Shown: positions 2,040-28,954 of the stretch, in pieces
Position numbering within the stretch: the first letter of the stretch is position 1
How the letters are laid out: each line of letters begins with the position of its first letter
Assembly (NCBI GenBank): GCA_944383545.1
Contig: CALWPY010000001.1
Location: 11,980-43,979 of the forward strand
Origin: an uncultured Lachnospiraceae bacterium
Lineage (GTDB): Bacteria; Bacillota; Clostridia; Lachnospirales; Lachnospiraceae
Length of the DNA stretch: 32,000 nucleotides
Reading direction: 5' to 3'
Translations under genes and position numbers: made by a program
Notes under the pieces: generated by a model
Database searches by the model: none
Told to the model about the DNA's origin: nothing
The model's input: the letters and a program-made list of their open reading frames with translations, nothing else

Positions 2040-2063
2040 AGTCCCTCCTCATAAATAAACCTT

Positions 2064-3128
2064 TTAATATTTCTTTGCTTCTTCCTCTTTATTAAGCACT
2101 CTCAAAGCTCCCTGTGCAAGTGCGAGAAGCTCATCTTCACCCGGATATATGGTTACTCCTGCTATGAAGCCTACCCTCTTTATGATTTCCTCTGTAACAT
2201 ATTTTCCGTATGAAATTCCGCCTGTAAGGATAATCTGGTCAACCTTTCCTGAAAGTACTGCTGCCTGTGCTCCGATATCCTTGCTTACCTGATAGATAAA
2301 TGCATCAAATACATTCTTTGCATACTCATCTGTCTCTGCCATCTTAGCCACGTCTCTTGCATCATTAGTATTTAAGTATGCATTGAAACCGCCGCCGCCG
2401 ACAAGCTTCTTCATCATTTCTTTTTCTGTATATTTACCTGAATAGCAGAGCTTAACAAGTGCTCCCGGAGGAACACAGCCTGCTCTTTCAGGTGAAAATG
2501 CACCGTCACCGTCAAGTGCGTTAAATACATCTATAACTTTTCCACCTGTATGTGCACCGACTGATACACCGCCGCCCATATGCACAACGATAAGGTTTAA
2601 GCTTTCATAAGGAACTCCCTTTTCCTTTGCATATCTTCTTGCAACAGCCTTCTGATTTAAAGCATGGAAAATACTTATTCTCGGAAGCTCAGGTACTCCT
2701 GAAAATCTAGCAATTTCCTGAAGCTCGTCAACAACAACAGGGTCAACGATATAAGAAGGTGCGCCTATCTCATCACCGATTTCTCTTGCAAGAATACCGC
2801 CGAGATTTGATGCATGCTCACCGCCCTTTGCCTGTACAAGGTCTTCTAAAAGTTCGTCACTTACTTCATATGTACCGCTTGGAATAGGCTTAAGAAGTCC
2901 GCCTCTTCCTACGATAACGTCGAAGCTCTTTATGTCAATGTCCTTTTCCTTAAGCATATCTAAAATAACATTCTTACGGAAGTCCTTCTGACTGTAAATA
3001 GTATCGTACTGCTTTATTTCCTCTGTTGAATGTCTTAAGGTTTCATCAAAACTAAGATTTTCATCTTCAAAAACACCAATCTTTGTAGACGTTGAGCCCG
3101 GATTGATTATAAGCATTTTATAAGCCAT
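2064..3128 (-). CDS. buk: Butyrate kinase
   Basis: 354 aa. The N-terminus [18 protein letters not shown], and [42 protein letters not shown] and ILTGGI, are collinear with clostridial Buk (ASKHA fold). It sits directly downstream of ptb. Confidence 0.92.
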
Positions 3129-3141
3129 TTTTCTATCTCCT

Positions 3142-4056
3142 TTATTTATTTAACTCTTCTGCAACAACTGCCGCAAATGCAATGGAATTTACCTTTGTCT
3201 CAAATGTATCTGAACGTGAGGTAAGAATAACAGGTGCCTTTGTACCTGTAAGAATACAACCGTTTCTTACCTTTGCCGTATGTACAAGCGCCTTATATAC
3301 AAGGTTTCCTGCATGAATGTCAGGGAAAAGAATAATATCAGCATCTCCTACAATCTTACGTCCTGTAGCTCCTTTATGAATAGCCGCTTCAGGGTCTATT
3401 GCAAGGTCTAATGAGAGAGGTCCGTCAACTATACAGCCTGTAATCTTACCTTCTTCATTCATCTTTGTAAGCTCTGCTGCCTCAACCGTAACAGGCATCT
3501 TAGGGTTTACTACTTCTACTGCCGCAACAGGTGCAACCTTAGGACACTCAATTCCGCATGCATGAACTACTTCTACTGTATTATTTATAATTCCTACTTT
3601 ATCTTCAAGTGTCGGATAAGGAATAAATGCAACATCAGTTAAGAACAACAGCTTGTCATGTCCTTCTATATCAAATACACATACATGTGAAAGAGGATTT
3701 CCCGTTCTAAGTCCTACTTCTTTATCCAGTACGCTCTTAAGGAAGCCTTTTGTATCAATAAGCCCCTTCATATACATGTCAGCCTTTCCGTCATGTACCA
3801 AAGAAACCGCAGTTCTTGCCGCCTCATATATATCCTTTACGTCAATTACTTCATACTCATCAAGGTTCATACCGATTTTATCAGCAATTTCCTTAATCTT
3901 GTCTGCATCTCCTACAAGAATTGCGTCTGCAATTCCCTGCTCCTTGGCAGCCATAACAGATTCCAGTATCGGCTCATCCTGCGCAACTGCAACAGAAACT
4001 ACTTTTCTGCTACACTGTGACACCTTGTGCAACAAATCATCAAAACCCATATTCAT
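3142..4056 (-). CDS. ptb: Phosphate butyryltransferase
   Basis: 304 aa of the phosphate acetyl/butyryltransferase family ([43 protein letters not shown]). Pairing with buk 13 bp downstream supports butyryl specificity. Confidence 0.85.
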
Positions 4057-4166
4057 TTTCTCATATCACCTTTCATATGTAATTTTTTGCCCTCATCAGG
4101 GCACAGTTATTATATATAATATCACCACAATATAAAATAATCAAGAAATCTTAAAGCTGACATGTA

Positions 4167-4439
4167 CTAAATCCAGTCATAATTTCCGCCTGTAATTGCA
4201 AGGCTTAAAAGAGTGTCCATTTTTTCCACTTCTTCTGCACCCTCACATATGGAAATAAGCTCTGCTGTAGGCTTATTTTCTTCCATTACTTCATCAGGTC
4301 CTATTTCCGGGTCAAACTCACTCTCACAGTCAGGACACTCTGTAAGCTTTTCGGTTGTCAGTTTTAAAAATCTCGTTCCGCACTTTCTACATTCATAAAA
4401 TCCGCATTTTTCAGTGCCGTCGGGTACATAGTACATCAA
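4167..4439 (-). CDS. Small zinc-ribbon protein
   Basis: 90 aa with two CxxC pairs (CRKCGTRF ... CPDCESEF). Its start overlaps the upstream ORF stop by 4 bp. Confidence 0.5.
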   Translation of the reverse strand: MMYYVPDGTEKCGFYECRKCGTRFLKLTTEKLTECPDCESEFDPEIGPDEVMEENKPTAELISICEGAEEVEKMDTLLSLAITGGNYDWI

Positions 4440-4738
4440 CTCTCACTCCTTAGTTTTTTTCTTTTAATTAATTCATCAAGAAGTTTTGAAACAGCGCATA
4501 ATACTATTGCCAGAACGCAGACTATGGTATTTTGCTTTTTCTCTATCTTCTTTCTTCTTTTATTTAAATCCTTTGCTATTCTCTCGGCTTCCTTTATGTC
4601 TGCCTTCATTATTTTTTTCATTTTTCTGCGTTCCCCAAAGCTGTCAGTATTTATGGCTCTTGCCTTTTTAGGCAGCTTAGGTGCCTTAGCTTTTTTTGCG
4701 TCCTTTGCACTTCTTCTCAAAACTATACCTCCTGACAC
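4436..4738 (-). CDS. Lysine-rich small protein with one hydrophobic helix; hypothetical
   Basis: 100 aa, highly basic (KKAKAPKLPKKA, KRRKKIEKK), with the helix IVCVLAIVLCAV. It overlaps the neighbouring ORF on both sides. The true start is uncertain. Confidence 0.35.
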   Translation of the reverse strand: MSGGIVLRRSAKDAKKAKAPKLPKKARAINTDSFGERRKMKKIMKADIKEAERIAKDLNKRRKKIEKKQNTIVCVLAIVLCAVSKLLDELIKRKKLRSES

Positions 4739-5031
4739 TCGTAATCCACACAGCTTCTTTCCGAAACCATAGACCTTACATATCCGGCAACTTCCAGATG
4801 CTTAGGATTTGTCTGATATCCTTTTAAAGCATCTTCATCCTTAAATGTACTGTCCAACATGATATCTCCTGTTGATGAGGAAAGAAACTCTGTCTTTACG
4901 CTTATTTCTTCAAGTCCCGGAATTACACCTTTAAGTCCTTCAAGACCTGCTTTTATTTTGGCTTTTGCCTCACCTTTTTCTTCTTCAGATAATTCCGGTT
5001 TTAATTTCCATATTATTATGTGCTTAACCAT
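4723..5031 (-). CDS. Dabb (stress-responsive alpha-beta barrel) domain protein
   Basis: 102 aa. MVKHIIIWKLKPE, LEGLKGVIPGL, DSTFKDEDALKGYQTNPKHLEV follow the typical Dabb/ferredoxin-like dimeric barrel pattern. Confidence 0.75.
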   Translation of the reverse strand: MVKHIIIWKLKPELSEEEKGEAKAKIKAGLEGLKGVIPGLEEISVKTEFLSSSTGDIMLDSTFKDEDALKGYQTNPKHLEVAGYVRSMVSERSCVDYECQEV

Positions 5032-5154
5032 TGCTTTTATTCCTCCTGTTATAATATTTTCTCAGTCATTCATTACCTTATATTAATTTCACTTTAATTA
5101 TTTATTATACGGATACGTTACTTATTTTTCAAGATTTTATATGGATTCATACAT

Positions 5155-5192
5155 TAAAAAAAGGATTTATCAATCTGATAAATCCCTTTTTA
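5155..5192 (-). terminator. Intrinsic terminator downstream of the cell-wall hydrolase gene (bidirectional shape)
   Basis: Hairpin ggatttatca-atc-tgataaatcc at 5163-5185, flanked by an A-run on the left and a T-rich run on the right. On the minus strand the hairpin is followed by TTTTTTTT, 3-10 nt after the stop at 5195. Confidence 0.6.
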
Positions 5193-5194
5193 TT

Positions 5195-8062
5195 TTAATA
5201 GCTTAAAAGCCTATTTATCTGAGTTTTAAGCTCATATCCGTAGTTCTTTGCTGAAGCCCAGCCCACACCATACGGATTTTCCTGAATTCCCAACCATTCC
5301 ACATATGGTGCACTGCCTCTTGTTACATACTGGAATCTCGGGTCGACACAGGCATTGTTTAATTCCTCAGTTGACGCATATGCCTTCAGGTGCTGAATAT
5401 GTGCACGAATTCCCTCTCTTACACTGGAAAAGGAATTTCCCTTAACACCGTTTCCCGTTGCTCCCAGTCCTGCAAAATTATACTGCTCTATTGATACATC
5501 GCCCGTAAATTTTAAAAAATTCGTTTCCTTCATAGCCTGCGCAAAAGCAACCTCTGCCTTTACTCCCTCTGCCTTTGCTTCTTCTATATACATCTGACAA
5601 AAGGTCTGCAAATCCGGTGCATCTGAATTCGCATAAAAGGACGGGTACGTCGCATATACATTATAATATGCCATAAGCTGACTTACCGTAGTGCCTGAGT
5701 TTCCCATTATACTTGTATATAAGAGTTTATTGGCTATACGCCCCTCACTCTTACCGTAATTAATATAATGCGTATAATATCTTGAAAGATTATCTCCGTA
5801 TGCCAGTCTTAAATCTGCATAGTTGTTTCTGTAATAGCCTACAATAAAATCAGAGTTTCCCTGACGGCCTTCTGCTATTCCGTAGACAACAAAATGTCTT
5901 AATACCGCTGTATCATTTAAGCCGTATTTATTCTTTACATCACTGTATTTATTTACATAATAGCTGAAATTATATACTGATGAATAATCCACTCCGTCAT
6001 AAACATGAGCTATATTCTGCATACTTGTAACGCCGGTTGCCTTTCTGCCCTCGCTTTTTCCGTAATTCATATAATGCAGGTAATAGGATTTTAAGTCACT
6101 TCCATATTTACTCCTAAGGTCTGAGTATGTATACAGGTATGACATTACATCAAAATCTGATTTTGCCTGACGGCCTTCTGCCATTCCGTATAACACAAAG
6201 TGCCTTAACGCAGCCACGTCATTATTTCCGTATGCATTTTTTACATCGCTGTATTTACTTATATAATAATTGTAATCATAAACTGCCGAATAATCCACTC
6301 CGTCGTATTTTGTAACATATCCTGTAAGAGAAGTGCTTCCCGCACCGCTTCTTCCCTCAGCTTTGCCATATTTAATATAGTGCAGATAATAGGATTTTAA
6401 ATCATCTCCGTAGGCAGCTCTTAAATCAGCATATCTGTTTTTATATGTTATAACATTAAATTCAGCATTTCCCTGACGGCCTTCTGCGATTCCGTATACA
6501 ACAAACTGTCTCAAAGCCGCTGCTACATTACTTCCGTAGGTATTTGCCACGTCACTGTATTTTCCTATATAGTAATCAAAGTCAAATACAGCAGAATAAT
6601 CTATTCCTTCATATATATATCCGTCAGACTTTACAAGTCCGTAGTACTCCGCTATTGCTTCTGCGTCGGCAACACCCAGTGCCTTAAGCTTTTCATCAGT
6701 GCTCAGAAAATTTTCTGTATCACTTACATTACTTATGAATGCATGCTCAATCAGTACAGCCGGAATCCCTGCCTTCTTGCATTCCCTTATTACTGCAAGA
6801 TAATCCGCCAGTGAGCCGTCAGGATAGGTAGTATTATTTTCCGAATTATGAATAAGAGTTCCTCCTGCCCACGAATTAAGACCGAGAGCATTCAGATTAT
6901 CAAATATTTTCTGCGCAAGTTCCTTTCCTTCCTGACCCAAATCAGGCCTGTAATTACTGTTAGGATAGTAAACACCTGCTCCGTTTGCAGAGCTGCTCGT
7001 ACTTGAATTTAAATGCAGGCTTACAAACACATCTGCATTCTTTGCTGCCGCAAAATCAGTCCTGTAAGTAAGACAGTCCGAGCCGCTTACCCCGCTTCCT
7101 CCCGCAGGACACTCGCTTCCTGTTCTGGTCATGTATACGGTTACTCCGAAATACTTTTCCAGCTCCTCTTTACAGTATTGAGCTATCTTAAGAACAAGTT
7201 CTTCTTCGTAATATCCGTTCTGATTTGCACCTGCATGTGTACTGTCATGTCCCGGGTCCAGAACAACTATCAAATTCTGATTTGACGAATATAAGGTGTT
7301 TGAAGACTCCTCCAGACTGAATGTCGATACTTCAGGTACTGAGCTTTCATTCTCCTGAAGAACATCTCCGATATTCTGATTAGAAATTACATTTCCCGAT
7401 TCGTCTGTATATACTATATTTTCTCCTGCTTCACCCGACTCCTCCGGGGATATAATAATGTCATCAGGAGTTACGTCCGCTTCCTTATTTACGCCGTAAA
7501 GTATATCCATACCTGCAGAAGCAAAATCTATTGAATATTCTTTTCCTAAGATTATATATGTCATTCCTGAAAGCTTGTAAACAGCCTTCTCACCATCTGC
7601 ATGATTTACGGAAAAGAGCACTGTATTTCCCGATACTTTATTTGCAGAGACCGTAAATTCTTCTCCTGTTTCGGAATTTATATATTGAAGGACCGCTCCC
7701 TCAATTACTGTATTCTGAGTTCCTATCTCCGCCATTATATTCTGACTGTCAGGAGTTGTTATATATGGCTTCTCTACAAATATATAATTAAGAAGTGTTT
7801 CTTCTGCCGGTATCTCATCCGAGCCTTCTTCCGTATTCTCCTTCGTAATTTCTTCTTCTGAGGTATTCTCAATATTATTTTCTGAAGAACTGCTTTCTAT
7901 ATCTGCATCGGAAGGTGTACCTTTTTCTTCAGACGTATCTTGTATACCGGTATTATCCTCGTAGACGGCTTCGGCAGCAAATACCTGATTTACAGGAAGC
8001 TGAGTAAATGCAATAATTACTGCCATCATTACCGCAAGGACTTTACTATAAAACTTTTTCAT
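5195..8062 (-). CDS. Secreted bifunctional peptidoglycan hydrolase: MurNAc-L-alanine amidase, repeat region and C-terminal glucosaminidase
   Basis: 955 aa. Signal peptide MKKFYSKVLAVMMAVIIAFTQLPVNQVFA, then an acidic linker. Amidase_3-like core (VVLDPGHDSTHAGA ... VSLHLNS ... IEHAFISN). Three ~97-aa Y/G-rich repeats. The C-terminal domain carries FAQAMKETNFLKF ... NFAGLGA, typical of LytD-type endo-beta-N-acetylglucosaminidases. Confidence 0.85.
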   Translation of the reverse strand: MKKFYSKVLAVMMAVIIAFTQLPVNQVFAAEAVYEDNTGIQDTSEEKGTPSDADIESSSSENNIENTSEEEITKENTEEGSDEIPAEETLLNYIFVEKPYITTPDSQNIMAEIGTQNTVIEGAVLQYINSETGEEFTVSANKVSGNTVLFSVNHADGEKAVYKLSGMTYIILGKEYSIDFASAGMDILYGVNKEADVTPDDIIISPEESGEAGENIVYTDESGNVISNQNIGDVLQENESSVPEVSTFSLEESSNTLYSSNQNLIVVLDPGHDSTHAGANQNGYYEEELVLKIAQYCKEELEKYFGVTVYMTRTGSECPAGGSGVSGSDCLTYRTDFAAAKNADVFVSLHLNSSTSSSANGAGVYYPNSNYRPDLGQEGKELAQKIFDNLNALGLNSWAGGTLIHNSENNTTYPDGSLADYLAVIRECKKAGIPAVLIEHAFISNVSDTENFLSTDEKLKALGVADAEAIAEYYGLVKSDGYIYEGIDYSAVFDFDYYIGKYSDVANTYGSNVAAALRQFVVYGIAEGRQGNAEFNVITYKNRYADLRAAYGDDLKSYYLHYIKYGKAEGRSGAGSTSLTGYVTKYDGVDYSAVYDYNYYISKYSDVKNAYGNNDVAALRHFVLYGMAEGRQAKSDFDVMSYLYTYSDLRSKYGSDLKSYYLHYMNYGKSEGRKATGVTSMQNIAHVYDGVDYSSVYNFSYYVNKYSDVKNKYGLNDTAVLRHFVVYGIAEGRQGNSDFIVGYYRNNYADLRLAYGDNLSRYYTHYINYGKSEGRIANKLLYTSIMGNSGTTVSQLMAYYNVYATYPSFYANSDAPDLQTFCQMYIEEAKAEGVKAEVAFAQAMKETNFLKFTGDVSIEQYNFAGLGATGNGVKGNSFSSVREGIRAHIQHLKAYASTEELNNACVDPRFQYVTRGSAPYVEWLGIQENPYGVGWASAKNYGYELKTQINRLLSY
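5738..6610 (-). repeat. Three tandem ~290-bp in-frame coding repeats inside the hydrolase gene
   Basis: The protein repeat YDGVDYSxVYxFxYYxxKYSDVxNxYGxNxxAxLRHFVxYGxAEGRQ...YxDLRxxYGxxLxxYYxHYxxYGKxEGR occurs three times. Each unit is made of two related ~40-aa halves. Confidence 0.8.
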
Positions 8063-8295: not shown

Positions 8296-8346
8296 GGGGC
8301 TGTCGCTTTAACGAATAAAAATTCGTGAAGCGACAGCTTCCTTTTT
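8296..8346 (+). repeat. IS end distal to the transposase start: terminal inverted repeat forming a hairpin plus T-run
   Basis: ggggctgtcgcttt-aacgaataaaaattcgt-gaagcgacagc followed by ttccttttt. The first 11 nt equal the reverse complement of 10172-10182. Confidence 0.6.
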
Positions 8347-8464
8347 GCTATTTTTACGATTGATTTTAAGAAGAAATTCAATCCTTATCTGCTTTTCTAT
8401 AAAAAAAGCGTACTTTAATAAGCCATTTTCCATGGCTTAAAAGTTTATTTTAATAAGTTAAAAA

Positions 8465-10084
8465 TCAAGCACTTTTTAGAGGAAATAAATGAGTTCCGGT
8501 CTTACCTTTTTGAATCTTGTTATGTAGTTTATTTATATTCCTTGCCATCGCCAGCAATGTACTTTCTGCAAGAACATTAGTTGTTCCTTTGCTTAAGTAT
8601 CTTCTAAACTGCATATCCTGTTTTAAATCTCCAAAGGAACCTTCTGCCTGAATGCTTCGGTTTGTTCGAAAAAGAATTCCTTCTTCTGAAAAAATCCGTT
8701 CCAAATCTTTCTGTCTGTATTTCAGAAATGTTTTGGCAACCTGAATCGTTTTTGTTCTTTCATCCAAAGGTGTCTTACAGTTATTGCTTTTGATACATTC
8801 CTTTTTGTAAGGGCATCCATCGCAGTTCTCACATTTATAAATAGTCTTTTCACTCACATACCCGGTTTTGCTTTTGGATTGTCTGACATGAACGACTGTC
8901 AGCCTTTTATCATTTCTGCAGGTATAAATATCCGCTTCTTCATCATATTCCATGTTTTCGATTTTTCCTATGTTGTTTCTGTATTTACGTTTTTTTGAAA
9001 TTTCATAGTTGGCTGGTTTTATATAAGAAATCTGTCCATTGCTTTCAAGAAATAGATAGTTTTCCTCACTTTCATACCCCGCATCCGCAGTGATATTTTT
9101 GTACTTGAATTTAAGATGATTTTCTGCATCTTTTAAAAATGGTATCAGGGTTGTTGTATCAGTGGGCTGCGGCCCGATGGTAAGCCATGTGATATATTCA
9201 GAATCTACACCATGCTGGAGATTGTACGCCGGTTTTAACTGCCCATTTCCCATAGCATCTTCTTTCATTCTCATAAATGTAGCATCATGGTCGGTTTTGG
9301 AATAGCTGTTCCGTTCTCCACAGATATGAATTTGCTGATTGTATTCTTTGAGTCTGGACAAATATCCCTCAAGGGTTTCAATGCTCTTTTGAAGTAGCGT
9401 TTTTCTTTTGCCTATACCATGGACAAAAACTACATTTTCGCTTTCTTTCAGAGTATAAAGTTTTTTACGAAGTTTCTTTACGTGCTTCATTTTTATAATA
9501 CTGTCATAAACAATCTTTATGTCATAAAGTTGTTCGCACTCAGCGACAAAATCAGCAAGTTTTATGAGGAGTTTTTCCTGATTCTTAGTTACTGCTTTCT
9601 TCCAGACAAAAGTATATTTGTTTGCGTTGGCTTCAATTTTTGTACCGTCAATAAAAATGGTCTCTCCCGAAATTTCACCAAGGTCAAAAAGTGTATTGGA
9701 CATTTCTGCAAGAATTCGCTTAGAACATAGAGCAAAATGAATACTTCGAAATCGTGCAAATATCGAATGGTCTGGAGCAGGCGCACCTTCCAAAAGGAAC
9801 ATGAAATTGATGTCCCTCTTGCAGTTTAACTCCATGGAACGTGATAAATAATCCCCATTCATGTAAGAATAGAGAACAATCTTAAGAAGCGTTCTTGGCG
9901 ATACTGAATTTATTCTTTCATAAGTAGAATACAGGTCAGTCAAATCCATAGCCTCCACAAATTGACTTAGTAAACGCACAGAATCATCTTCAGGAATAAT
10001 TGTTTCAAGATTTAGCGGAAGTTTTAGTTGATATCCTTCTGCATTTTGGGTATAATCTTTTTGTAATTTAATAGGTAATAGCAT
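8465..10084 (-). CDS. IS1182-family (IS5-like DDE) transposase
   Basis: 539 aa. The N-terminal DUF772-like region reads DDSVRLLSQFVEAMDLTDLYSTY ... LLKIVLYSYMNGDYLSRSMELNCKRDINFMFL. The DDE core has IFIDGTKIEANANKY and ITADAGYESEENY. A Cys cluster (CENCDGCPYKKEC) and the C-terminal IQAEGSFGDLKQ ... LLAMARNINKL match the family. Confidence 0.85.
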   Translation of the reverse strand: MLLPIKLQKDYTQNAEGYQLKLPLNLETIIPEDDSVRLLSQFVEAMDLTDLYSTYERINSVSPRTLLKIVLYSYMNGDYLSRSMELNCKRDINFMFLLEGAPAPDHSIFARFRSIHFALCSKRILAEMSNTLFDLGEISGETIFIDGTKIEANANKYTFVWKKAVTKNQEKLLIKLADFVAECEQLYDIKIVYDSIIKMKHVKKLRKKLYTLKESENVVFVHGIGKRKTLLQKSIETLEGYLSRLKEYNQQIHICGERNSYSKTDHDATFMRMKEDAMGNGQLKPAYNLQHGVDSEYITWLTIGPQPTDTTTLIPFLKDAENHLKFKYKNITADAGYESEENYLFLESNGQISYIKPANYEISKKRKYRNNIGKIENMEYDEEADIYTCRNDKRLTVVHVRQSKSKTGYVSEKTIYKCENCDGCPYKKECIKSNNCKTPLDERTKTIQVAKTFLKYRQKDLERIFSEEGILFRTNRSIQAEGSFGDLKQDMQFRRYLSKGTTNVLAESTLLAMARNINKLHNKIQKGKTGTHLFPLKSA

Positions 10085-10142
10085 ACTTATATTTTACACC
10101 AACTGCCAGAAACTTTCGAGGTCTGGCAGTTATTTTTTCACA

Positions 10143-10184
10143 AAAAAAGGAGCTGCGCACTAATTCTTAGTGCGACAGCCCCTT
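10143..10184 (-). repeat. IS end proximal to the transposase start (42 bp), copy A; also an intrinsic terminator for the cassette
   Basis: aaaaaaggagctgcgcactaattcttagtgcgacagcccctt. On the minus strand this is a ~13-bp stem with one bulge, followed by 7 T. It lies 19 bp downstream of the stop of the 257-aa ORF. It is identical to 14751-14792. Confidence 0.7.
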
Positions 10185-10202
10185 AATAACTGAGATGTTA
10201 AT

Positions 10203-10976
10203 TTACAGCATTTTCTTTAAAATGTCCGCCAATACATAATAAGCATACTTATAAACTTCAGCGGAATTGTTGTCTGGCGTAACCTCACCATGCATCAAAG
10301 AACAACGCAATAAATATAAAACCTCAATGATGCCTCTGCTAACTTTAGATCTTTCATTAATAAAAATAATGTTATTGTCACGGTCTTTTCTTAGTACACT
10401 TTCAATAACATAAGGACAAACTTCTTTATAAAACGCTTTGCATTGACCTTGCTGTTCTATACCTAAACGAAGAAAATCGGCATGCACATCCAATTCTGTT
10501 TCATCATATCGATCCTGCTCAAATTGAAAATACACATAAGCGGGATTGTTTTTTCGATGAACTAATGTAGTGACCTTTTGTCTTGTCCTCTGAATTTTAT
10601 AGTGCGTTACTCTGTAATCTCCTTCTGCTATGCTTTTAGGATTATTTATCGCAATTTCAGAAAACGAAATTTGCTGACTCATTCCCCCTCTTTCCTGAGT
10701 AACAATGGCAGCACTGACTAGAGCAGATTGTAAATTGTTAAGATTCTTCTTGAAAGAAATTGCCCCATCAGTATTGTTATTTATATCGAGTAATGTTTCT
10801 ATGTACCCTTTGAATCGATTGTTTTCAGATTTTAATCGCTCTATTATTTCTCGATCTGTTCGTTCCTTATACTCACTACGATACCAAGAATTGAATGCTA
10901 TCCAAACTTTGATAAAGGCCGAATAATAATCGACTTTTATATCTATTTGTTGGATCCAATCTCTATAACTTGGCAT
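10203..10976 (-). CDS. Hypothetical 257-aa protein with a C-terminal Rx4H (HEPN-like) motif, translationally coupled to the S subunit
   Basis: Its start shares a TAATG overlap with the S-gene stop at 10976. The only recognisable motif is LYLLRCSLMHGE (R-x4-H followed by G) about 35 aa from the C-terminus. Both the N-terminal (YYSAFIKVWIAFNSWY) and C-terminal parts look helical. No TM segment or signal peptide. Confidence 0.55.
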   Translation of the reverse strand: MPSYRDWIQQIDIKVDYYSAFIKVWIAFNSWYRSEYKERTDREIIERLKSENNRFKGYIETLLDINNNTDGAISFKKNLNNLQSALVSAAIVTQERGGMSQQISFSEIAINNPKSIAEGDYRVTHYKIQRTRQKVTTLVHRKNNPAYVYFQFEQDRYDETELDVHADFLRLGIEQQGQCKAFYKEVCPYVIESVLRKDRDNNIIFINERSKVSRGIIEVLYLLRCSLMHGEVTPDNNSAEVYKYAYYVLADILKKML

Positions 10977-12415
10977 TAGCTCTCAACCCCCTTTTCATTA
11001 AGCCAACTTAACGCAACATCTTCGCCTTGTTCAATCGCTAAGCTAACAGCATCTGTTGCTAATCGTAGCATTGACAATCCTTTTGTCTTTTCTTCATAAG
11101 CTTCAATAATATGTTTTTCTATTTCTTTTTGAAGACTTTCTTCAACGAAGGGTATAACAATTTTATCAATATCTTTTGGATATAGTTCCTGTTGTGCAGA
11201 ACCAGCACTTAGGCGTTCAACTTGCATTCTTCCAATTTGAGAATTCATAACCAAAGCCACATATAGACAATTGTATCCTTGAGTTAATCTAAGAATGTTA
11301 ACATGGTTACTAGCGATTGCCCGTTCTTTTGACAAATATGGAGATGTTCTTCCGATATTTGCTCCTGTTGTATAAGTCAGGATGTCATTCAGATGTATTT
11401 GTGCTTTTGGTTTTGAGTCCCATATAGAACAATGTGTTTTTTCGAAATTATTATAATCCAAAGTGGTATCTAAGATGTGTTTACTATTAACTACATTTAA
11501 TTCCCCATCGCTAGAATAAATCGGTTGCACGCCTCGTGCATTATACGCTTGAATTTCTCCGATCTTTTTCGTGAAAAGCGAATTGTTCTGCAACAAAGAA
11601 AATAGATACTCATATTTAGGATGATAAAATTCAGCATCTATCCTAAGTTCATTATTAAGAACACTTTTATAATATTTAATTGCACAGTTATTATGGGCGA
11701 CATGTTCTGTATCGAATTTCAAGTTTTCATAAAGAATGCTGGTTGCCAACTTATACTTATTATCTGAACTCGATATTGTTTTGTTGCCTTTTTTTATGGT
11801 TTGAGCAATTATTGTTTGAAAAGAAGAACTTAATAGCGGTATAGGAATAGTACGAATACGGCTCATTGCCACGGTGGGTTGTGCAGACAAGGTCTTTTCC
11901 TTATCTAGAATAGCTTGACCACAACTCGAATTCAAAAAAGCAGATACGTAATACGGATTTAGCACGGCGTCTTTAGGTGTAAGTCTGCAAACATTTGGCC
12001 CTAATTGCAAGTTTTCCTGCTCTAACGTTAATGCTCTTCTATATTCTCCTGTATATGACATAATGATGTCACCGATTTTTAGTTTAGAGCGCTTTAAAAA
12101 CTCATCGGCTACGGATTTGTCAATTCTAAGTGTATCATCCAATAACAAATGCTCACTTTGAACATTTTTGCTTGTAATTGCTAAATAGTAATCATCTGTA
12201 GTCGTGTTTTCCTCTGTGAAATATTTGGTATATTCAAATCCCGCCAATTTTGATACATCAAAATGTTCTCCAAGTATGCAATGGTTCTTTGCCTTTATAT
12301 GATTTATAAGGTTCAAAGCGGATTTTTTATAATATTCAGAATCAATTCTAAATACTCCATTGCATTCTTTAGTAAAACTATAATTTATTTCTATACACTC
12401 AAGCCCATCCATCAA
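10976..12415 (-). CDS. Restriction-modification specificity subunit (HsdS-like, two target-recognition domains)
   Basis: 479 aa with the duplicated Methylase_S layout. The two variable halves each open with a similar motif (FRIDSEYY and LRIDAEFY). A central spacer helix and a C-terminal conserved helix (LQKEIEKHIIEAYEEKTKGLSMLRLATDAV) are present. Confidence 0.8.
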   Translation of the reverse strand: MMDGLECIEINYSFTKECNGVFRIDSEYYKKSALNLINHIKAKNHCILGEHFDVSKLAGFEYTKYFTEENTTTDDYYLAITSKNVQSEHLLLDDTLRIDKSVADEFLKRSKLKIGDIIMSYTGEYRRALTLEQENLQLGPNVCRLTPKDAVLNPYYVSAFLNSSCGQAILDKEKTLSAQPTVAMSRIRTIPIPLLSSSFQTIIAQTIKKGNKTISSSDNKYKLATSILYENLKFDTEHVAHNNCAIKYYKSVLNNELRIDAEFYHPKYEYLFSLLQNNSLFTKKIGEIQAYNARGVQPIYSSDGELNVVNSKHILDTTLDYNNFEKTHCSIWDSKPKAQIHLNDILTYTTGANIGRTSPYLSKERAIASNHVNILRLTQGYNCLYVALVMNSQIGRMQVERLSAGSAQQELYPKDIDKIVIPFVEESLQKEIEKHIIEAYEEKTKGLSMLRLATDAVSLAIEQGEDVALSWLNEKGVES

Positions 12416-12456
12416 GGCCTTATATTTAGCTTCATTGAAAGGTTCAACAGATGGGC

Positions 12457-14442
12457 TTATCGAAAAAAACTTAAACCTTCCTTCTTTGCAAATTCAATAA
12501 AAGCTTCTGCAATACCTTCTTGAGTCATACCATCGTGATTATAAAGATCATGATCTACGATAAAGTGACTATGGCTGTCGAGTTTGATTTCCCCATTTTC
12601 ATCCTTTACATAAATTTTCTCTCCAGAATTGTCCTTGCTTGGTTTCTGCATCGTTGCAAAGAAAATCGGATAATCGTCTTTTTTGGGGCACAACTCATCA
12701 TCCCACTTTTGCACAAACAAAACTGAGGTTTTCGTTCCAGTATGAGGTTTGAAAACATTGCCGTGTAAGCCGACAACTGCAAGTATACGACAACGCTCAG
12801 CAATAAAGTCACGAATATACTTGTCGCTCGAATTATTAAAACGCCCTTGAGGAAGGACTACGGCCATTCTGCCGCCCGGCTTTAAGAAATTAAGATTACG
12901 CTCGATAAACAAAATATCTCTGCCGACCTTTTTCTGCCACTTACCTTTTTCGCTTTTAGCAAGCTCATAATGAGAAAGAATGGTCTGCTCTTTAATATCT
13001 CCGGCGAACGGAGGATTCGCCATAACAAGATCAAAATTAAATTTGCTAAAATCATTGCTTCCTTTTGGTTGTAGCTTTTTCAGTTTTTTAAAGCCTTCGT
13101 TATAAGTATCATTCCAATCTTCCTGTTTGGTAATTTCGTTCCAACGAGAATAATCAAGTGTATTAAGGTGCAGTACATTGGTTTGCCCATCACCGGCAAT
13201 CAAATTAAGAGTTCGAGCAACACGAACGGTTTTCTCGTCAAAATCAATTGCAAAGACATTATCCCGAACAAAGTTTCTTTCATCAGGGGTTCTTTCCGAT
13301 GCTGTAAAGTCTTCACCGGGTTCCAGCCCCTTTGATAAACGAATTTCTTTCCATACTTTGAAAATGCTATGTACAGTAAAGCCCGAACTACCGCATGCAG
13401 TATCAATAATTTTATCATTAACTGTTGGATTCATCATTTTTACGCACATATCAATAACATAACGAGGCGTAAAATACTGACCTTTTTCGCCCTTTTGCGC
13501 TTTACTCATCAAATATTCAAACGCATCATCAACAACATCAAGATTGTTATTAAAAAGTTTAATATCCTGTAATGTAGAAACACAAACAGCAAGGTGCGAA
13601 GGGGATAACAGGATTTTGCTTTCCTCAGGGAATACACCTTCCCATTTCTTTTTTGCATCGTCAAATAGACCTTGAATTTTCTCTTTTAATTCAAAGTCTG
13701 TATCACCACTATTGCGGAACTGCAAATATGCTGTTTTGTCGTTAGCACAGATAAGCTCATCATAAAGTTTTGCGAAAATAAGCTTAAAGATTTCCTCGAA
13801 AGAATCCACACCGGCACTTGCAAGGACTTCATCTTCCATTTCCTTTATAAGATTTCTTAGAGAGCGTTTTTCCTTGCTAATCTTATCACGAGTTCTTAAA
13901 TCATCGTAGGTATATCTTTCGTTTAAGATATCTGAAAGTTTTTGTGTAGCCTTTGGAATGTCGCTAATCATCTCAAAGAAATTAGGATCTTTGCGATTAT
14001 AACAAGAAATTTGCTCACCGTTTGTCCAGACGCCAATAGGCGCACCTGTAGCGTTACAATAAGATTTTAATTGTTCTTTTCCGTCAGTGAGCTTAGGTTT
14101 TTTCAGTTCTACAATGATATAAGGAACAGTCGGACGATCCTTATCCATAATCGTTATATCAGCTCGCTTAACTTCACGACCAAAATGAATGGGAGTTTCG
14201 AGTTGAATACGATCTGTCGGATAACCATATTCGTGAATCAGCTTGTAAATATACAATTGGCGTACCGCTTCTTCCGGTGTAAGCTTAATTTCCTTACCTC
14301 TAATAAGACACTTGATATAAGGAACTTCCACACCTTTTATGGGTTTCATAAATACTGCAGTTTCAATAGATGCAATCGTATCCGTTGAAAACAGTGTATC
14401 ATCATAAGAGGTATTCTTGAAAAGCTCATTTAAATTCATCAT
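12457..14442 (-). CDS. Fused N-terminal PD-(D/E)xK (HSDR_N-type) domain plus gamma-class N6-adenine DNA methyltransferase; BcgI-A-like Type IIB/IIG RM subunit
   Basis: 661 aa. The N-terminal 150 aa match the Type I R-protein N-terminus pattern (PEEAVRQLYIYKLIHEYGYP ... RADITIMDKD ... PYIIVELKKP ... GVWTNGEQ), giving a D...E-x-K nuclease signature. The MTase part has GQYFTPRYVIDMCV, motif I IIDTACGSSGF and motif IV VMANPPFAG. Confidence 0.8.
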   Translation of the reverse strand: MMNLNELFKNTSYDDTLFSTDTIASIETAVFMKPIKGVEVPYIKCLIRGKEIKLTPEEAVRQLYIYKLIHEYGYPTDRIQLETPIHFGREVKRADITIMDKDRPTVPYIIVELKKPKLTDGKEQLKSYCNATGAPIGVWTNGEQISCYNRKDPNFFEMISDIPKATQKLSDILNERYTYDDLRTRDKISKEKRSLRNLIKEMEDEVLASAGVDSFEEIFKLIFAKLYDELICANDKTAYLQFRNSGDTDFELKEKIQGLFDDAKKKWEGVFPEESKILLSPSHLAVCVSTLQDIKLFNNNLDVVDDAFEYLMSKAQKGEKGQYFTPRYVIDMCVKMMNPTVNDKIIDTACGSSGFTVHSIFKVWKEIRLSKGLEPGEDFTASERTPDERNFVRDNVFAIDFDEKTVRVARTLNLIAGDGQTNVLHLNTLDYSRWNEITKQEDWNDTYNEGFKKLKKLQPKGSNDFSKFNFDLVMANPPFAGDIKEQTILSHYELAKSEKGKWQKKVGRDILFIERNLNFLKPGGRMAVVLPQGRFNNSSDKYIRDFIAERCRILAVVGLHGNVFKPHTGTKTSVLFVQKWDDELCPKKDDYPIFFATMQKPSKDNSGEKIYVKDENGEIKLDSHSHFIVDHDLYNHDGMTQEGIAEAFIEFAKKEGLSFFR

Positions 14443-14633
14443 ATATCCGCTCCTTCATCAACAAGTCTTTTATATCTTTCATAGGAAATAATTACATTTT
14501 GAGGTTTGTTTTGCTTTTGAACAATTAAAACCTTGTCTTTAGTGGCAACATCTTTAAATATTTTTGATGCTTGACCTTTTAAAAAGGGGGTAACCGACTC
14601 ATAATCGGGTATAATCTTCTTTTTTTGTGACAA
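14439..14633 (-). CDS. Phd/YefM-family antitoxin-like small DNA-binding protein
   Basis: 64 aa. KVLIVQKQNKPQNVIISYERYKRLVDEG matches the Phd/YefM core pattern (vvItrnGkpvaVllsyeeYerL). TTG start with a strong AAGGAGG Shine-Dalgarno 9 nt upstream. Its stop overlaps the start of the RM gene by 4 bp. Confidence 0.65.
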   Translation of the reverse strand: MSQKKKIIPDYESVTPFLKGQASKIFKDVATKDKVLIVQKQNKPQNVIISYERYKRLVDEGADI

Positions 14634-14670
14634 TCAGTTACGCCTCCTTATCATATAATAATGCGAATAC

Positions 14671-14700
14671 AGTATACCTCAAAATCATTACTTATGTCAA
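14671..14700 (-). promoter_or_regulatory. Sigma-70-type promoter of the cassette operon
   Basis: The minus strand reads TTGACA (14700-14695), an 18-nt spacer, then TATACT (14676-14671), about 35 nt upstream of the TTG start. Confidence 0.5.
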
Positions 14701-14720
14701 GTTTATTATTATAATAAATG

Positions 14721-14738
14721 TAATGACTTTAATCATTA
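14721..14738. promoter_or_regulatory. Candidate operator: inverted repeat TAATGA-N6-TCATTA, with a third half-site inside the promoter spacer
   Basis: taatgactttaatcatta at 14721-14738. Another TCATTA at 14685-14690 lies between the -35 and -10 hexamers. Confidence 0.35.
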
Positions 14739-14750
14739 TTTATTGGCAAT

Positions 14751-14792
14751 AAAAAAGGAGCTGCGCACTAATTCTTAGTGCGACAGCCCCTT
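14751..14792 (-). repeat. Solo 42-bp copy B of the IS end; intrinsic terminator of the CarD-like gene
   Basis: Exact 42/42 match to 10143-10184 in direct orientation. It lies 32 bp downstream of the stop at 14824. On the minus strand the hairpin is followed by TTTTTT. Confidence 0.7.
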
Positions 14793-14823: not shown

Positions 14824-15321
14824 TTACATTCTTTCCAGAATAAAAGGAACGACATCTTCTCTGTTAATATTTAAAACTAATGAAAACTCATCATATATAA
14901 GCTTTTCAGCATCCTTTAAAAATCTTTCATCCATTATATGAAGCTTCTTTCCGTTTTTTACCAGGTCCTCCTGATGAAGATATATGGTCCTTATAAGAAT
15001 CATAAGTTCTTCCCTGTCGCCGTTATATATAATATTTTTGAATTTTTCTTTTCTCTTGTTTTCATTGTCAATCCATTCAATTTCTTTGCCCTTAAGCGAT
15101 TTTATAAGTTCATTTATTTCTTCTTCGGAGATAATTCTTTTCATTTTTGAAATAAGCTTTTCATTATCAAACGGAATATAAACTGTAGCGTTTTCATCAA
15201 ATACCGGCTTTAAAACATAATATTTATGCGTTTCATAATTAAACTTTTCTTCCGTGATATCAGTTATTTTACACACCCCGTTCGTTCCATATAAAATAGT
15301 ATCACCTACACTGAAATTCAT
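14824..15321 (-). CDS. CarD/CdnL-family RNA-polymerase-binding transcription regulator
   Basis: 165 aa. The N-terminus FSVGDTILYGTNGVCKITDI ... YYVLKPVFDENATVYIPFDN matches the CarD_CdnL_TRCF Tudor-like domain. The C-terminal half is helical. Confidence 0.8.
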   Translation of the reverse strand: MNFSVGDTILYGTNGVCKITDITEEKFNYETHKYYVLKPVFDENATVYIPFDNEKLISKMKRIISEEEINELIKSLKGKEIEWIDNENKRKEKFKNIIYNGDREELMILIRTIYLHQEDLVKNGKKLHIMDERFLKDAEKLIYDEFSLVLNINREDVVPFILERM

Positions 15322-15340
15322 TAAAAAAACTCCTTTCTAA

Positions 15341-15602
15341 TGCCGCCGACCTGCTTCACCAATTTGCGAAGCAAATTGATGAACTACTCATGCGCCATCG
15401 CACAAAGTGCGATTTTCCATGCGCATGATACCCTTTCAGGGAGGGGGCCATCCGCAGTGCCATTGCAAAGCAATTTCATTGCACTGCGTCCACTGCCGCC
15501 GACCTGCTTCACCAATTTGCGAAGCAAATTGATGAACTACTCATGCGCCATCGTACGAAGTGCGATTTTCCATGCGCATGATACCCTTTCAGGGAGGGGG
15601 CC
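15341..15602. repeat. Tandem direct repeat of a 109-bp GC-rich, hairpin-rich unit (period 153 bp) in the leader of the CarD-like gene
   Basis: Copy 1 (15341-15449) and copy 2 (15494-15602) are identical at 107/109 positions. A 44-nt palindromic spacer separates them. Each unit has three stem-loops: ttcaccaatttgc-gaa-gcaaattgatgaa; catgcgc...tcgcac-aaa-gtgcga...gcgcatg; and ccct-ttc-aggg. Confidence 0.85.
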
Positions 15603-18256: not shown

Positions 18257-18327
18257 AGGCGCCAACCAGATTTGAACTGGTGATAGAGGTGTTGCAGACC
18301 TTTGCCTTACCACTTGGCCATGGCGCC
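18257..18327 (-). tRNA. tRNA-Cys (GCA)
   Basis: The reverse complement is GGCGCCATGGCCAAGTGGTAAGGCAAAGGTCTGCAACACCTCTATCACCAGTTCAAATCTGGTTGGCGCCT. 7-bp acceptor stem, anticodon loop CTGCAAC, T-loop GTTCAAATC. No CCA is encoded. Confidence 0.9.
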
Positions 18328-18371
18328 ATATTTACATATATGACCGTTAAACGGTTTTTATTTTATGTAAG

Positions 18372-18443
18372 CTCCCCGAGTAGGGCTCGAACCTACAACC
18401 CCACGGTTAACAGCCGTGTGCTCTACCATTGAGCTATCGAGGA
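18372..18443 (-). tRNA. tRNA-Asn (GTT)
   Basis: The reverse complement is TCCTCGATAGCTCAATGGTAGAGCACACGGCTGTTAACCGTGGGGTTGTAGGTTCGAGCCCTACTCGGGGAG. Anticodon stem cacgg/ccgtg, loop CTGTTAA, T-loop GGTTCGAGC. Confidence 0.9.
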
Positions 18444-18547
18444 ATATAACAACATGATAGATTATATGCAAAAAATATATATAAGTCAATACTTTTCGTA
18501 AGTCATTTTCCCTTAAGTAATCCATAATATCGACCTAAATTTTTTAA

Positions 18548-18635
18548 CGGAGATGGAGGGATTTGAACCCTCGCGCCGCGCGAACGACCTACACCCTTAG
18601 CAGGGGCGCCTCTTCAGCCACTTGAGTACATCTCC
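18548..18635 (-). tRNA. tRNA-Ser (GCT), class II with long variable arm
   Basis: The reverse complement is GGAGATGTACTCAAGTGGCTGAAGAGGCGCCCCTGCTAAGGGTGTAGGTCGTTCGCGCGGCGCGAGGGTTCAAATCCCTCCATCTCCG. Anticodon loop CTGCTAA, with a long GC-rich variable arm. Confidence 0.9.
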
Positions 18636-27562: not shown

Positions 27563-28954
27563 CTATTTATCCTGAGGATTTATCTTTTTTATGATAATCT
27601 GTATCATTGCGTTAAATTCCTCATCCTCTTCCATTTTTTTCTTAACATTTTTTATTCCGCTCATAACTGTGGCATGATTTTTTCCACCTACAATGTCTCC
27701 TATTGAATGAAGAGTTTTAGCCGTATAGTTACGGCAGAGATACATAACTATCTGTCTTGCTATTGCTATGTCCTGACTTCTCTTTTTGGAGCATATGTCT
27801 TCTGTGGATATATTTAAGTGTTCAGCAACAGTATTTAATATGAGCTCACCGGTTATGGAAGTGTTTGAATCCTTCGAGATAAGGTCCTTTAAAGTATCTT
27901 TTGCCAGGTCAACCGTAATATCAACATTTATAAGCTTTGAATATACACTTATCTTGTTTAAGGCTCCCTCAAGCTCACGCACGTTTGATACAATGTTTTC
28001 TGCAATATATTTAAATACATCATCAGAAATGTTTGTAAGGTTATCCATTTCGGCCTTATTTTTAAGGATGGCCATACGTGTTTCATAATCAGGGGCATGA
28101 ATATCAATAGGAACTCCCCATTCAAAACGTGAACGGATTCTTTCTTCAAGTGATTTTATTTCCTTTGGAGGTTTATCCGAGGAAAGAATTATCTGTTTTT
28201 TAGCTTCATATAAGAAATTAAAGGTATTGAAAAATTCCTGCTGTGTTCTTTCACGGCCTATGATTTCCTGAATATCATCAATTAAAAGTACATCTACCTG
28301 TCTGTATTTAGCTCTGAATTCTTCAGTTTTATTCTTTTGTATGGCATCAATAATTTCATTAGTAAAAGTTTCTGAAGAAACATACAGGACGTTTGCTTCA
28401 TCGTCATGCTGAAGTATGTAATGTGCTATTGACTGCATAAGGTGAGTTTTTCCAAGTCCTGAGCCTCCGTAAATAAAAAGAGGGTTAAAATTATCCTGTG
28501 AAGGAAGGTCAGCTACTGCAAGACATGTAGCATAGGCATGTCTGTTACTGTCACCTACAATAAAATTATCGAATGTATATTTAGGATTTAAATTACTTCT
28601 TCTTATTGCATCACGATAAGCCTTGCTGTAAGAAGCATCCTCGTTTTCCTGAGAATCTTCTTTATTAAAAGTCTTGGCAAGGTTTGATTTTTCATCTATA
28701 ACTATTTCAATATCAGCATTGTTTAGAATTTCTCTAATGGAAGAAAGAAGAAATATATCATAACCCTTCTTGTGGAGATAATCTACTCCGAATTTACCTC
28801 TCTGTTCATCAACAAAAAAGTATATGGTATTATTTCTTACTTCATAAACTTTAATAGAACGTATCCATGTATCTATAATAATTTTTGATACGTCATATTG
28901 AGTTTCCAGAAGGTAGAGAATATCTTCCCATTTGCTTTCAATCAGTTTCTTCAT
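27563..28954 (-). CDS. dnaA: Chromosomal replication initiator protein DnaA
   Basis: 463 aa. NPKYTFDNFIVGDSNRHAYA, Walker A GGSGLGKTHLMQ, Walker B LLIDDIQ, sensor SSDKPP, and the domain IV motif IARQIVMYLCR ... IGDIVGGKNHATVMSG. Confidence 0.97.
   Translation of the reverse strand: MKKLIESKWEDILYLLETQYDVSKIIIDTWIRSIKVYEVRNNTIYFFVDEQRGKFGVDYLHKKGYDIFLLSSIREILNNADIEIVIDEKSNLAKTFNKEDSQENEDASYSKAYRDAIRRSNLNPKYTFDNFIVGDSNRHAYATCLAVADLPSQDNFNPLFIYGGSGLGKTHLMQSIAHYILQHDDEANVLYVSSETFTNEIIDAIQKNKTEEFRAKYRQVDVLLIDDIQEIIGRERTQQEFFNTFNFLYEAKKQIILSSDKPPKEIKSLEERIRSRFEWGVPIDIHAPDYETRMAILKNKAEMDNLTNISDDVFKYIAENIVSNVRELEGALNKISVYSKLINVDITVDLAKDTLKDLISKDSNTSITGELILNTVAEHLNISTEDICSKKRSQDIAIARQIVMYLCRNYTAKTLHSIGDIVGGKNHATVMSGIKNVKKKMEEDEEFNAMIQIIIKKINPQDK

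Follow-up and report, generated by a model that had tools for sequence, protein, structure and literature searches.

In a 32,000-nucleotide stretch of DNA from an uncultured Lachnospiraceae bacterium (GenBank assembly GCA_944383545.1, contig CALWPY010000001.1, positions 11,980 to 43,979), hereafter termed the window, four genes that together resemble a restriction-modification operon are found between genes encoding a CarD-like protein and an amidase/glucosaminidase, directly beside an insertion sequence (IS) of the IS1182 family. This raises the question of how the four-gene cassette came to be at this site. A previous reading of the window based on its letters alone (the sequence-only reading) had proposed that the IS carried the cassette as passenger genes, relying on a third copy of one of its ends. 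The analysis presented here points to the same general answer, namely that positions 8296-14790 correspond to an element bounded by IS ends via which the IS probably brought the cassette to its present location, be it by one or the other of two routes considered below.

A repeat search of the window revealed two direct copies of a 42-bp sequence, AAAAAAGGAGCTGCGCACTAATTCTTAGTGCGACAGCCCCTT, at positions 10143-10184 and 14751-14792, 100% identical and 4608 bp apart. Moreover, the 11-bp sequence GGGGCTGTCGC was present exactly three times, at 8296-8306 on the plus strand and at 10172-10182 and 14780-14790 on the minus strand. The number of such matches expected by chance is 0.06, and three matches were obtained in none of 100 shuffles. 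All genes of the window between positions 5195 and 18142 are encoded on the minus strand, with the transposase ORF lying inside the first two GGGGCTGTCGC termini and the four cassette ORFs (10203-14633) lying inside the two 42-bp copies. The repeat, the three termini, the inverted orientation of the outer pair (8296 and 14790), as needed for transposition of the whole, and the position of the cassette between the two 42-bp copies are all as the sequence-only reading had described them. Only 40 bp of the repeat (10143-10182) belong to the IS, the last 2 bp being flank (TT on the plus strand, AA in the orientation of the transposase gene).

The assignment of the IS to the IS1182 family was upheld, with the transposase scoring 320.3 bits against NCBIfam model NF033551 (cut-off, 270 bits). 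Relatives, obtained by scanning species-representative genomes, were found at 80 loci with 59-94% protein identity, and residues 1-539 of the transposase aligned with such sequences at up to 94% identity. When the IS together with 150 nt of flanking sequence at either side served as blastn query against the loci of these relatives, matches to more than 40 of them were obtained. In most full-length copies, these began at query position 149-151 and ended at query position 2037-2038, corresponding to window positions 10182 and 8296, respectively, to within 2 nt. Several relatives were, moreover, assembled as stand-alone contigs of 1871-1904 bp. Because similarity to relatives ends at 8296 and 10182, and given the stand-alone contigs, the IS can be described as an 1887-bp sequence with the termini originally proposed. 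Members of the IS1182 family are about 1.3-2 kb in length (ISfinder), and the presence of one transposase ORF within terminal inverted repeats corresponds to the layout of that family. The IS is apparently present as a single copy in this genome. In a plasmid collection, only a relative of the IS from Enterococcus, 72% identical at the nucleotide level, was found, while a phage collection contained no match.

Each end of the IS is a hairpin, with the terminal repeat serving as outer arm and a near copy of the terminal repeat serving as inner arm, followed by a T-run on the inward side. The predicted folds are stable, with z-scores near -6 (Table 1). Transcription entering the IS would thus meet, at either end, a stable hairpin and T-run resembling an intrinsic terminator. 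In more than 40 copies, drawn from many genera, the sequence GGGGCTGTCGCACTAAG(t)AATTAGTGCGCAGCTCCTTTT is read at the transposase-proximal end (consensus, GGGGCTGTCGCACTAAGtAATTAGTGCGCAGCTCCTTTT), while the identical 34-mer hairpin is also found in an ordinary 1887-bp copy of the IS on an unrelated metagenome contig (L099). On the basis of these sequence comparisons, the third copy, next to the CarD-like gene, is an end of the IS rather than a native terminator. The sequence-only reading had considered the opposite, i.e., that the 42-bp unit is a native terminator that was duplicated when the cassette inserted, with the IS landing later beside one of the copies. Although the unit indeed resembles an intrinsic terminator on the minus strand and folds like one, the same sequence is a conserved IS end in dozens of unrelated genomes, the left end of the IS contains the same 11-mer in inverted orientation, and copies of the cassette at no fewer than 20 other loci are associated with different, native terminators and lack the 42-bp unit. 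That proposal is thus refuted, with what probability it retains being negligible.

The cassette itself is widely distributed. Relatives of its methylase showing 92-100% identity are found in very many contigs and taxa, including one named Blautia hydrogenotrophica, whereas no relative of the host CarD-like protein exceeds 54% identity. As such, the cassette can be considered a recent import. Indeed, the operon was found as cargo of integrative mobilizable elements at more than 20 other loci in many gut Firmicutes, at 90-100% identity. The usual carriers are guaA-linked or Tn4451-like. They correspond either to guaA-linked islands with a tyrosine integrase, NikA-like and Mob_Pre proteins and TnpV, or to elements in which DUF6809 and TnpV accompany a relaxase and a large serine recombinase. 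The IS considered here was present at none of these more than 20 loci.

Comparison with such donor-type loci revealed where the homology stops. Similarity extends from position 14758 to 12396 at 91-98.5% identity, lapses in the variable gene encoding the specificity (S) subunit, and then runs from 11040-11005 to 10182 at 75-94% identity. At the upstream boundary, donors read ..AAAA-GGGCGAAGTTAAATACTTTGCCC-TTTTT(T)-ATTGCCAATAAATAATG, while the window reads ..AAAA-GGGGCTGTCGCACTAAGAATTAGTGCGCAGCTCC-TTTTTT-ATTGCCAATAAATAATG. The outer 42-bp copy hence occupies, between AAAA and TTTTTT-ATTGCC, the exact place of the native hairpin GGGCGAAGTTAAATACTTTGCCC of the other loci. This copy lies 31 nt past the stop codon of the CarD-like gene, has its IS-interior side directed toward the cassette, and is terminator-like on the minus strand. 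At the downstream boundary, donors read ..CATCTCAGTTATTAA-GAGCATTGcctaagCAATGCTC-TTAG.., while the window reads ..CATCTCAGTTATTAA-GGGGCTGTCGC... At the foot of the cargo terminator (here marked by a slash), donors thus present CAGTTATTAA/GAGCATTG.. (with CAGTTATTAA-GAGCATTGcctaagCAATGCTC being read downstream) and the window presents CAGTTATTAA/GGGGCTGTCGC... The sequence of the junction between the solo end and the cassette is GCAGCTCCTTTTTTATTGCCAATAAATAATG and that of the junction between the cassette and the IS is CAGTTATTAAGGGGCTGTCGC. The window accordingly keeps the six T of the donors upstream and the last 32 nt of the cassette downstream, with one and the same end module of the IS standing in for both native cassette terminators. 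The backbone of the donors, continuous on both sides of the cassette at every other locus, is absent from the window, and host DNA starts immediately outside both outer IS termini. That homology to the usual carriers ends exactly at the copies of the IS end is what delivery by an IS predicts. A 17/23 match to donor DNA within the 60 nt outside the solo end was also considered as donor sequence but was rejected, since 207 of 2000 shuffles scored as well.

A repeat of this sort could also have led unrelated contigs to be joined during assembly, as 42 bp is longer than common k-mer sizes and Logan unitigs indeed break at the repeat (L002, L101). However, the junction linking the CarD-like gene, the solo end and the cassette and that linking the cassette and the IS were each recovered by separate assembly of several samples (L083, L084, L085, L102, L002, L101). 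Both junctions are crossed by a number of independent assemblies made from different samples, among them scaffolds of 366 and 392 kb. The structure is therefore not an assembly artefact, with a chimera being highly improbable.

The manner in which members of this IS clade insert was next considered, relying on the flanks of 39 insertions, none of which was paired with its own empty site. Position -2 was A in 33 and position -1 was A in 20 of these, while position +2 was T in 35. In 19 of the 39 insertions, the two flanks were mutually complementary over at least 3 nt, as compared to 6.6 +/- 1.9 when partners were permuted; none of 2000 permutations reached 19. No consistent target duplication was detected across the 39 insertions. 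Judging from these flanking sequences, the clade inserts at stem-loops in an IS1272-like manner, without target duplication. Since AA is favored beside members of the clade, the 2-bp flank common to both 42-bp copies is unremarkable. At one locus (L026), a copy of the IS is exactly centered in a 44-nt perfect palindrome, with the 22-nt complementary flanks (6876-6897 and 8778-8799) ending CTGCAG/IS/CTGCAG. The arms of this palindrome (GCGACA..TGTCGC) resemble the IS termini.

Other arrangements involving the same clade were also encountered. Enterococcus faecalis plasmid pTW9 (L115; NC_014726.1) contains two direct IS copies, at 1154-3036 and 3904-5785, around a gene encoding an MBL-fold hydrolase. 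These copies are 69% identical to the IS of the window, present the same hairpin end architecture, and adjoin IS30 and the narAB ionophore resistance genes. The pair is arranged like a compound transposon. In a Lachnospiraceae metagenome-assembled genome (MAG), a 6.6-kb unit (L070:2200-8804) begins with a complete 5' hairpin that overlaps the stop codon of a 4-alpha-glucanotransferase gene, continues with 4.7 kb that include MatE, GT2/DUF218 and ATP-grasp genes, and then a transposase module without a 5' hairpin of its own, where similarity of the IS body to relatives sets in only some 45-58 nt inside the IS, and ends with a 3' hairpin of the normal kind, 14 nt away from a convergent gene. The GC content of the unit is 40-46%, as compared to 49-55% in its flanks. 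From its sequence, the unit resembles a transporter IS belonging to the same clade. A distant end at another locus (L062), at first sight a second example of the arrangement in the window, was rejected as an analogue, as it reflects the insertion of an IS3-family element into an IS end together with an unrelated hairpin.

Taken together, the limits of homology, the foreign nature of the cassette and the insertion habit of the clade lead us to infer that the cassette was delivered by the IS. At a time when the operon was still carried by an integrative mobilizable element, a copy of the IS would have inserted at the base of the operon's own terminator. The terminator just upstream of the operon would also have given way to an IS end, such that the operon would have been clipped from promoter to terminator. 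How the upstream end came to stand alone can be envisaged in more than one way. In what can be called the compound route, two insertions of the IS at the two terminators of the operon in the donor would have generated a compound transposon similar to that of pTW9. The solo end would then be the remnant of a full upstream IS copy, following a deletion between CAGCTCC-TTTTTT, corresponding to the inner arm of the 5' hairpin, and CAGCCCC-TTTTTT, corresponding to the 3' terminus and its T-rich flank. The outer pair of ends would have moved the unit to the terminator region of the CarD-like gene, between this gene and the amidase gene of the host. That the outer pair was, or can be, used in this way to move all 6.5 kb is a tentative proposal, one to which we assign somewhat less than an even chance. 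In a Lachnospiraceae MAG from goat rumen (L077), a solo 3' end hairpin at 2308-2358 is identical over 51 nt, TTTT flank included, to positions 8729-8779 of the resident IS, 4.5 kb upstream of which it lies. A deletion that is the mirror image of that proposed here would account for this solo 3' hairpin.

In a second, cointegrate route, the IS would have been present only at the downstream terminator of a circular mobilizable element, and the 6.5 kb would never have moved as a unit. Instead, replicative transposition, or recombination with a copy of the IS already beside the CarD-like gene, would have fused the element to the chromosome between two direct IS copies, after which a deletion between CTCC-TTTTTT, found after the 5' hairpin of the upstream IS, and GCCC-TTTTTT, in the upstream terminator of the cassette, would have removed the IS body and the backbone. 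The junction so predicted, GCAGCTCC-TTTTTT-ATTGCC, is exactly that observed, with donor-type loci (L122, L123, L131) sharing the six T. Moreover, the donors are circularizing elements with recombinases, and the family offers a precedent in the TnSha2 plasmid, which integrates flanked by two copies of IS1272 (PMC4923244). Such a course would, however, call for the loss of about 8-10 kb through homology of no more than 8 nt, with the deletion ending by luck at the upstream terminator of the operon, a boundary that hairpin-targeted insertion explains directly. Furthermore, circular molecules of IS1272 were not detected by Wan et al. (2017), who proposed a cut-and-paste-like model (PMC5678879), and the unit of L070 offers an instance elsewhere of cargo bounded by IS ends. 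All told, we consider the cointegrate route as unlikely yet deserving of serious attention. At the level of the junctions, both routes yield what is observed and fit equally well, such that the data do not allow for a choice between the two.

It is also conceivable that the solo copy is a self-standing mini-element which, mobilized by the transposase, took the place of the terminator upstream of the cassette and so created the spare end. In favor of this, both arms of the 34-bp hairpin resemble IS termini (GGGGCTGTCGC and GGAGCTG-CGC), as is the case for each end hairpin. The hairpin exactly replaces the core of the native hairpin between AAAA and TTTTTT, and solo hairpins are also seen at L077, L070 and L062. 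Still, the hairpin gives no sign of having multiplied. A search of plasmids for the end hairpin returned 13 records and 15 places, totals that equal those of the search for the IS itself, and hence no excess of solo hairpins, with one match in a Clostridium sporogenes plasmid being left uninspected. Only three or four solo copies were found in about 1 Mb of IS flanks, a 34-bp substrate is difficult to fit with a paired-end complex, and solo copies of both types of end can be explained by deletion between 12-mers that are nearly identical. A mini-element thus seems quite improbable. A broader version of the idea, in which the hairpin and T-run modules serve as portable terminator substitutes that are able to persist, or even to move, without the rest of the IS, is a speculation that we likewise regard as improbable, if slightly less so.

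Several points weigh against delivery of the cassette by the IS. In all samples in which it is present, the unit occupies the same single locus, and neither an empty site, an allele with the IS alone nor a second insertion site was recovered in exact look-ups of its proteins or among relatives of the host. The present outer flanks contain no recognizable remnant of a target hairpin, and the 3' flank is TA, rather than the usual TT. More than one route fits the origin of the solo end. Finally, part of the behavior ascribed to the IS is borrowed from a distant cousin, as the transposase shares only about 30% identity with those of staphylococcal IS1182-family elements, such as ISSau3 and the IS1272-like copy of L114. 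The flank statistics were nonetheless measured on the IS's own clade.

In considering known systems, the closest precedent for the element is TnSha1, formed by IS1272 in Staphylococcus; the layout is thus already known from staphylococci, with the window providing a new example. TnSha1 presents the order IRL'-sh-fabI-IRL-transposase-IRR, with IS1272 being found at the foot of the fabI terminator, and has been documented at about 19 target sites, with hairpins as targets (PMC4923244). In both cases, an IS1182-family IS is arranged in the order extra end, cargo, and end-transposase-end, with a full IS and an extra end oriented like the cargo-proximal end. In both, moreover, the IS adjoins the base of the cargo's terminator hairpin, and the IS or its clade inserts at hairpins or terminators without target duplication. 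At the same time, the two differ in several respects. The transposases share only about 30% identity. The extra end of TnSha1 is a stretch of chromosome that happens to be 69% similar to the inverted repeat, whereas that of the window is an exact copy of the 40-bp end module. The cargo of TnSha1 is one metabolic gene, while that of the window comprises the four genes of a restriction-modification-like operon that came from a mobilizable element. The hosts are also different, being Staphylococcus in the one case and an uncultured low-GC Firmicute in the other. Most decisively, TnSha1 is known from multiple target sites, while the unit of the window was found only between the CarD-like and amidase genes, as judged by exact-protein look-ups and one exact-pattern scan of metagenomes.

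IS1272 targets stem-loops and removes them without generating a duplication, while in IS1272L, a tandem 25-bp duplication of a segment containing an end gives rise to three ends (PMC5678879). The loss of inverted-repeat targets without duplication and the generation of three ends by duplication of one are thus shared with the window, although the duplicated ends of IS1272L are adjacent, whereas those of the window are 4.6 kb apart, around the cargo. Also, in the clade of the window the terminal repeats are found within subterminal hairpins, unlike in the IS1272-like copy of L114.

The element can further be compared to three other types of arrangement. As in a classical compound transposon, such as the pair of pTW9, directly oriented IS ends surround the cargo. 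A classical compound transposon has two full IS copies, however, while one of the two is represented in the window by its terminal 40 bp only. With one full IS and one transposase gene, the element is no classical compound transposon. In transporter ISs and mobile insertion cassettes, passenger genes are found within a single pair of IS ends. Passenger genes also travel inside IS ends in the case of the window, yet because an intact internal end remains, the IS can also move alone, unlike a transporter IS. The unit of L070 comes nearer to a true transporter IS than does the element of the window. ISEcp1, in turn, skips its normal end and uses weak surrogate ends at variable positions, generating 5-bp duplications. 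The likeness lies in the use of a more distant end, by which adjacent genes are carried along. The third end of the window is, by contrast, identical at 40/40 positions to the real end and is fixed in position. As it lacks a surrogate end and its outer flanks show no duplication, the element is not ISEcp1-like. Hence, of what the sequence-only reading had suggested, the layout of an IS with passengers and an alternative end was retained, while the likeness to end skipping by ISEcp1 gave way to that to TnSha1.

As for present mobility, the 1.9-kb IS and the 6.5-kb unit are, on paper, both competent, since the transposase is of full length and all three ends are intact. No evidence for movement was obtained, with every sample containing these exact proteins presenting the same locus. 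Exact look-ups of the transposase and of the CarD-like, 257-residue and Phd-like proteins returned only this locus or copies of the cassette in other elements. The search for empty, IS-only and cassette-only alleles and for the 6.5-kb unit at other sites, as advised in the sequence-only reading, thus returned none of the three alleles and only the locus between the CarD-like and amidase genes for the unit. Given that the host has no close relative, with CarD homologues reaching 54% identity at most, and that the two relatives sampled lack synteny, the empty site cannot be reconstructed; it would be predicted to read ..AACCCTTTTTAAAA, possibly followed by a lost hairpin, and then TACTTTAATTTTTT... 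A scan of metagenome contigs for the exact 34-nt hairpin gave one match, namely the ordinary IS copy of L099, while scans of viral contigs for the hairpin, the start of the cassette and the cassette/IS junction gave none.

The features of the element and its flanks are listed in Table 1. In terms of type I restriction-modification, the cassette offers methylase (M) and S subunits and no HsdR, with an HSDR_N_2 domain being found on the methylase. In the collection considered, 201 blocks contain the exact sequence of the Phd-like protein. The target-recognition regions of the S subunit vary among loci, differing between the window, L086, L103 and L122. The cassette is in fact a mosaic, as its promoter, Phd-like gene and methylase gene are 98.5% identical to those of L086-type loci, while the gene encoding the 257-residue protein is 75% identical to that of L086-type loci and 90-94% identical to those of L122 and L103. 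This last protein had no match in Pfam, NCBIfam or PADLOC. Its predicted structure is confident (pLDDT 90), and a structure search with the model gave no significant match in the PDB. Its 183 homologues are encoded in this same operon wherever their context was inspected, and 48 residues are invariant in an alignment of 38 sequences. The protein is a candidate for the missing effector of a methylase/S system without HsdR. In terms of transcription, the solo end module would, given its fold and T-run, terminate transcripts of the CarD-like gene. The inner module looks from its sequence like a terminator-type stop after the cassette and before the transposase gene, and would end the cassette transcript and shield the latter gene. 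The small hairpin that precedes the start of the transposase gene, on the inner side of the 5' end module, has equivalents in the relatives inspected (L064, L070, L099) and may regulate expression of the transposase. No Rfam match was found in the region.

Table 1. Positions in the window of the components of the IS-end-bounded element and of the flanking host genes.
Feature	Position	Strand	Basis and remarks
Complete IS1182-family insertion sequence	8296..10182	-	1887 bp; 11-bp perfect terminal inverted repeat GGGGCTGTCGC
Transposase, 539 aa, apparently intact	8465..10084	-	NF033551, DUF772, DDE_Tnp_1, DDE_Tnp_1_6
Transposase-distal (3') terminal hairpin module	8296..8341		GGGGCTGTCGC..loop..GCGACAGCTTCC, inward T-run; -29.1 kcal/mol, z -6.9; conserved in relatives
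Second small hairpin, between 5' end module and transposase start	10103..10129	-	CTGCCAGA..TCTGGCAG; read from sequence
Inner 42-bp copy, transposase-proximal end module of the IS	10143..10184	-	34-bp hairpin and T-run (10143-10182) plus 2 bp of flank; RNA fold -25.6 kcal/mol, z -6.2
Outer 42-bp copy, solo transposase-proximal end module of the IS	14751..14792	-	Fold -27.4 kcal/mol, z -6.4
Passenger cassette, 4566 bp, single operon with own promoter	10185..14750	-	Limits of homology at both IS-end copies
Candidate cassette promoter TTGACA-18-TATACT, 11/12	14671..14700	-	Inside a stretch 98.5% identical to other cassette loci
Phd/YefM-like small protein, 64 aa, first cassette gene	14439..14633	-	TIGR01552, 22.5 bits (cut-off 20.8); Pfam below threshold
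N6-adenine methyltransferase, 661 aa, N-terminal HSDR_N_2	12457..14442	-	Pfam N6_Mtase, HSDR_N_2, Eco57I; PADLOC MTase_I PDLC03034, 1088 bits
Type I-like specificity (S) subunit, 479 aa	10976..12415	-	Pfam Methylase_S; PADLOC Specificity_I, 1e-39
Conserved protein, 257 aa, last cassette gene	10203..10976	-	183 homologues
Host CarD-like gene, flank outside the element	14824..15321	-	Pfam CarD_TRCF_RID, CarD_C; nearest relatives at most 54% identical
Host amidase/glucosaminidase gene, flank outside the element	5195..8062	-	Pfam Amidase_3, Glucosaminidase

The two host genes flanking the element are, according to Pfam, those that the sequence-only reading had named. The region at 29000-29700 is AT-rich (24-26% GC) and contains a cluster of inverted repeats, with dnaA (27563-28954, minus strand) at one side, rnpA/yidC (plus strand) at the other, and a turn in GC skew. 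From these sequence features, it is the likely origin of replication (oriC). Together with dnaN, recF, gyrB and gyrA, they place oriC near 29-30 kb, about 14 kb from the element (about 13 kb in the earlier estimate). Upstream of the CarD-like gene, a tandem repeat (15336-15602; 114-nt core, 153-bp period, 96% identical) varies in copy number with the sample, with two copies in L083 and L084 and one in L085. Three 306-bp repeats within the amidase/glucosaminidase gene (5737-6614) look ordinary and are probably cell-wall-binding repeat domains. Three tRNA genes are clustered at 18257-18635 on the minus strand.

In conclusion, the donor-side sequences document how a defence operon that is usually found on recombinase-based mobilizable elements can be excised with both its terminators as exact limits. 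Such an operon can then be re-planted by a hairpin-targeting IS in a chromosome lacking a recombinase site for it. This extends gene capture of the TnSha1/IS1272 type from resistance genes of staphylococci to restriction-modification-like cargo in uncultured gut Firmicutes. Should the end modules indeed serve as portable terminator substitutes, then by replacing native terminators they would plant ends recognizable to a transposase at the borders of transcription units, such that any operon between two terminators could be clipped from promoter to terminator. Fixation of cargo could then proceed, over time, from a compound element, as in pTW9, to an IS with a solo end, as in the window, and on to a transporter IS in which the inner end is lost, as in L070. 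The collapse of one IS to its end hairpin could offer a simple route from compound transposons to IS elements with passenger genes, and the end motif GGGGCTGTCGC, together with its hairpin, provides a usable marker for such units in metagenomes.

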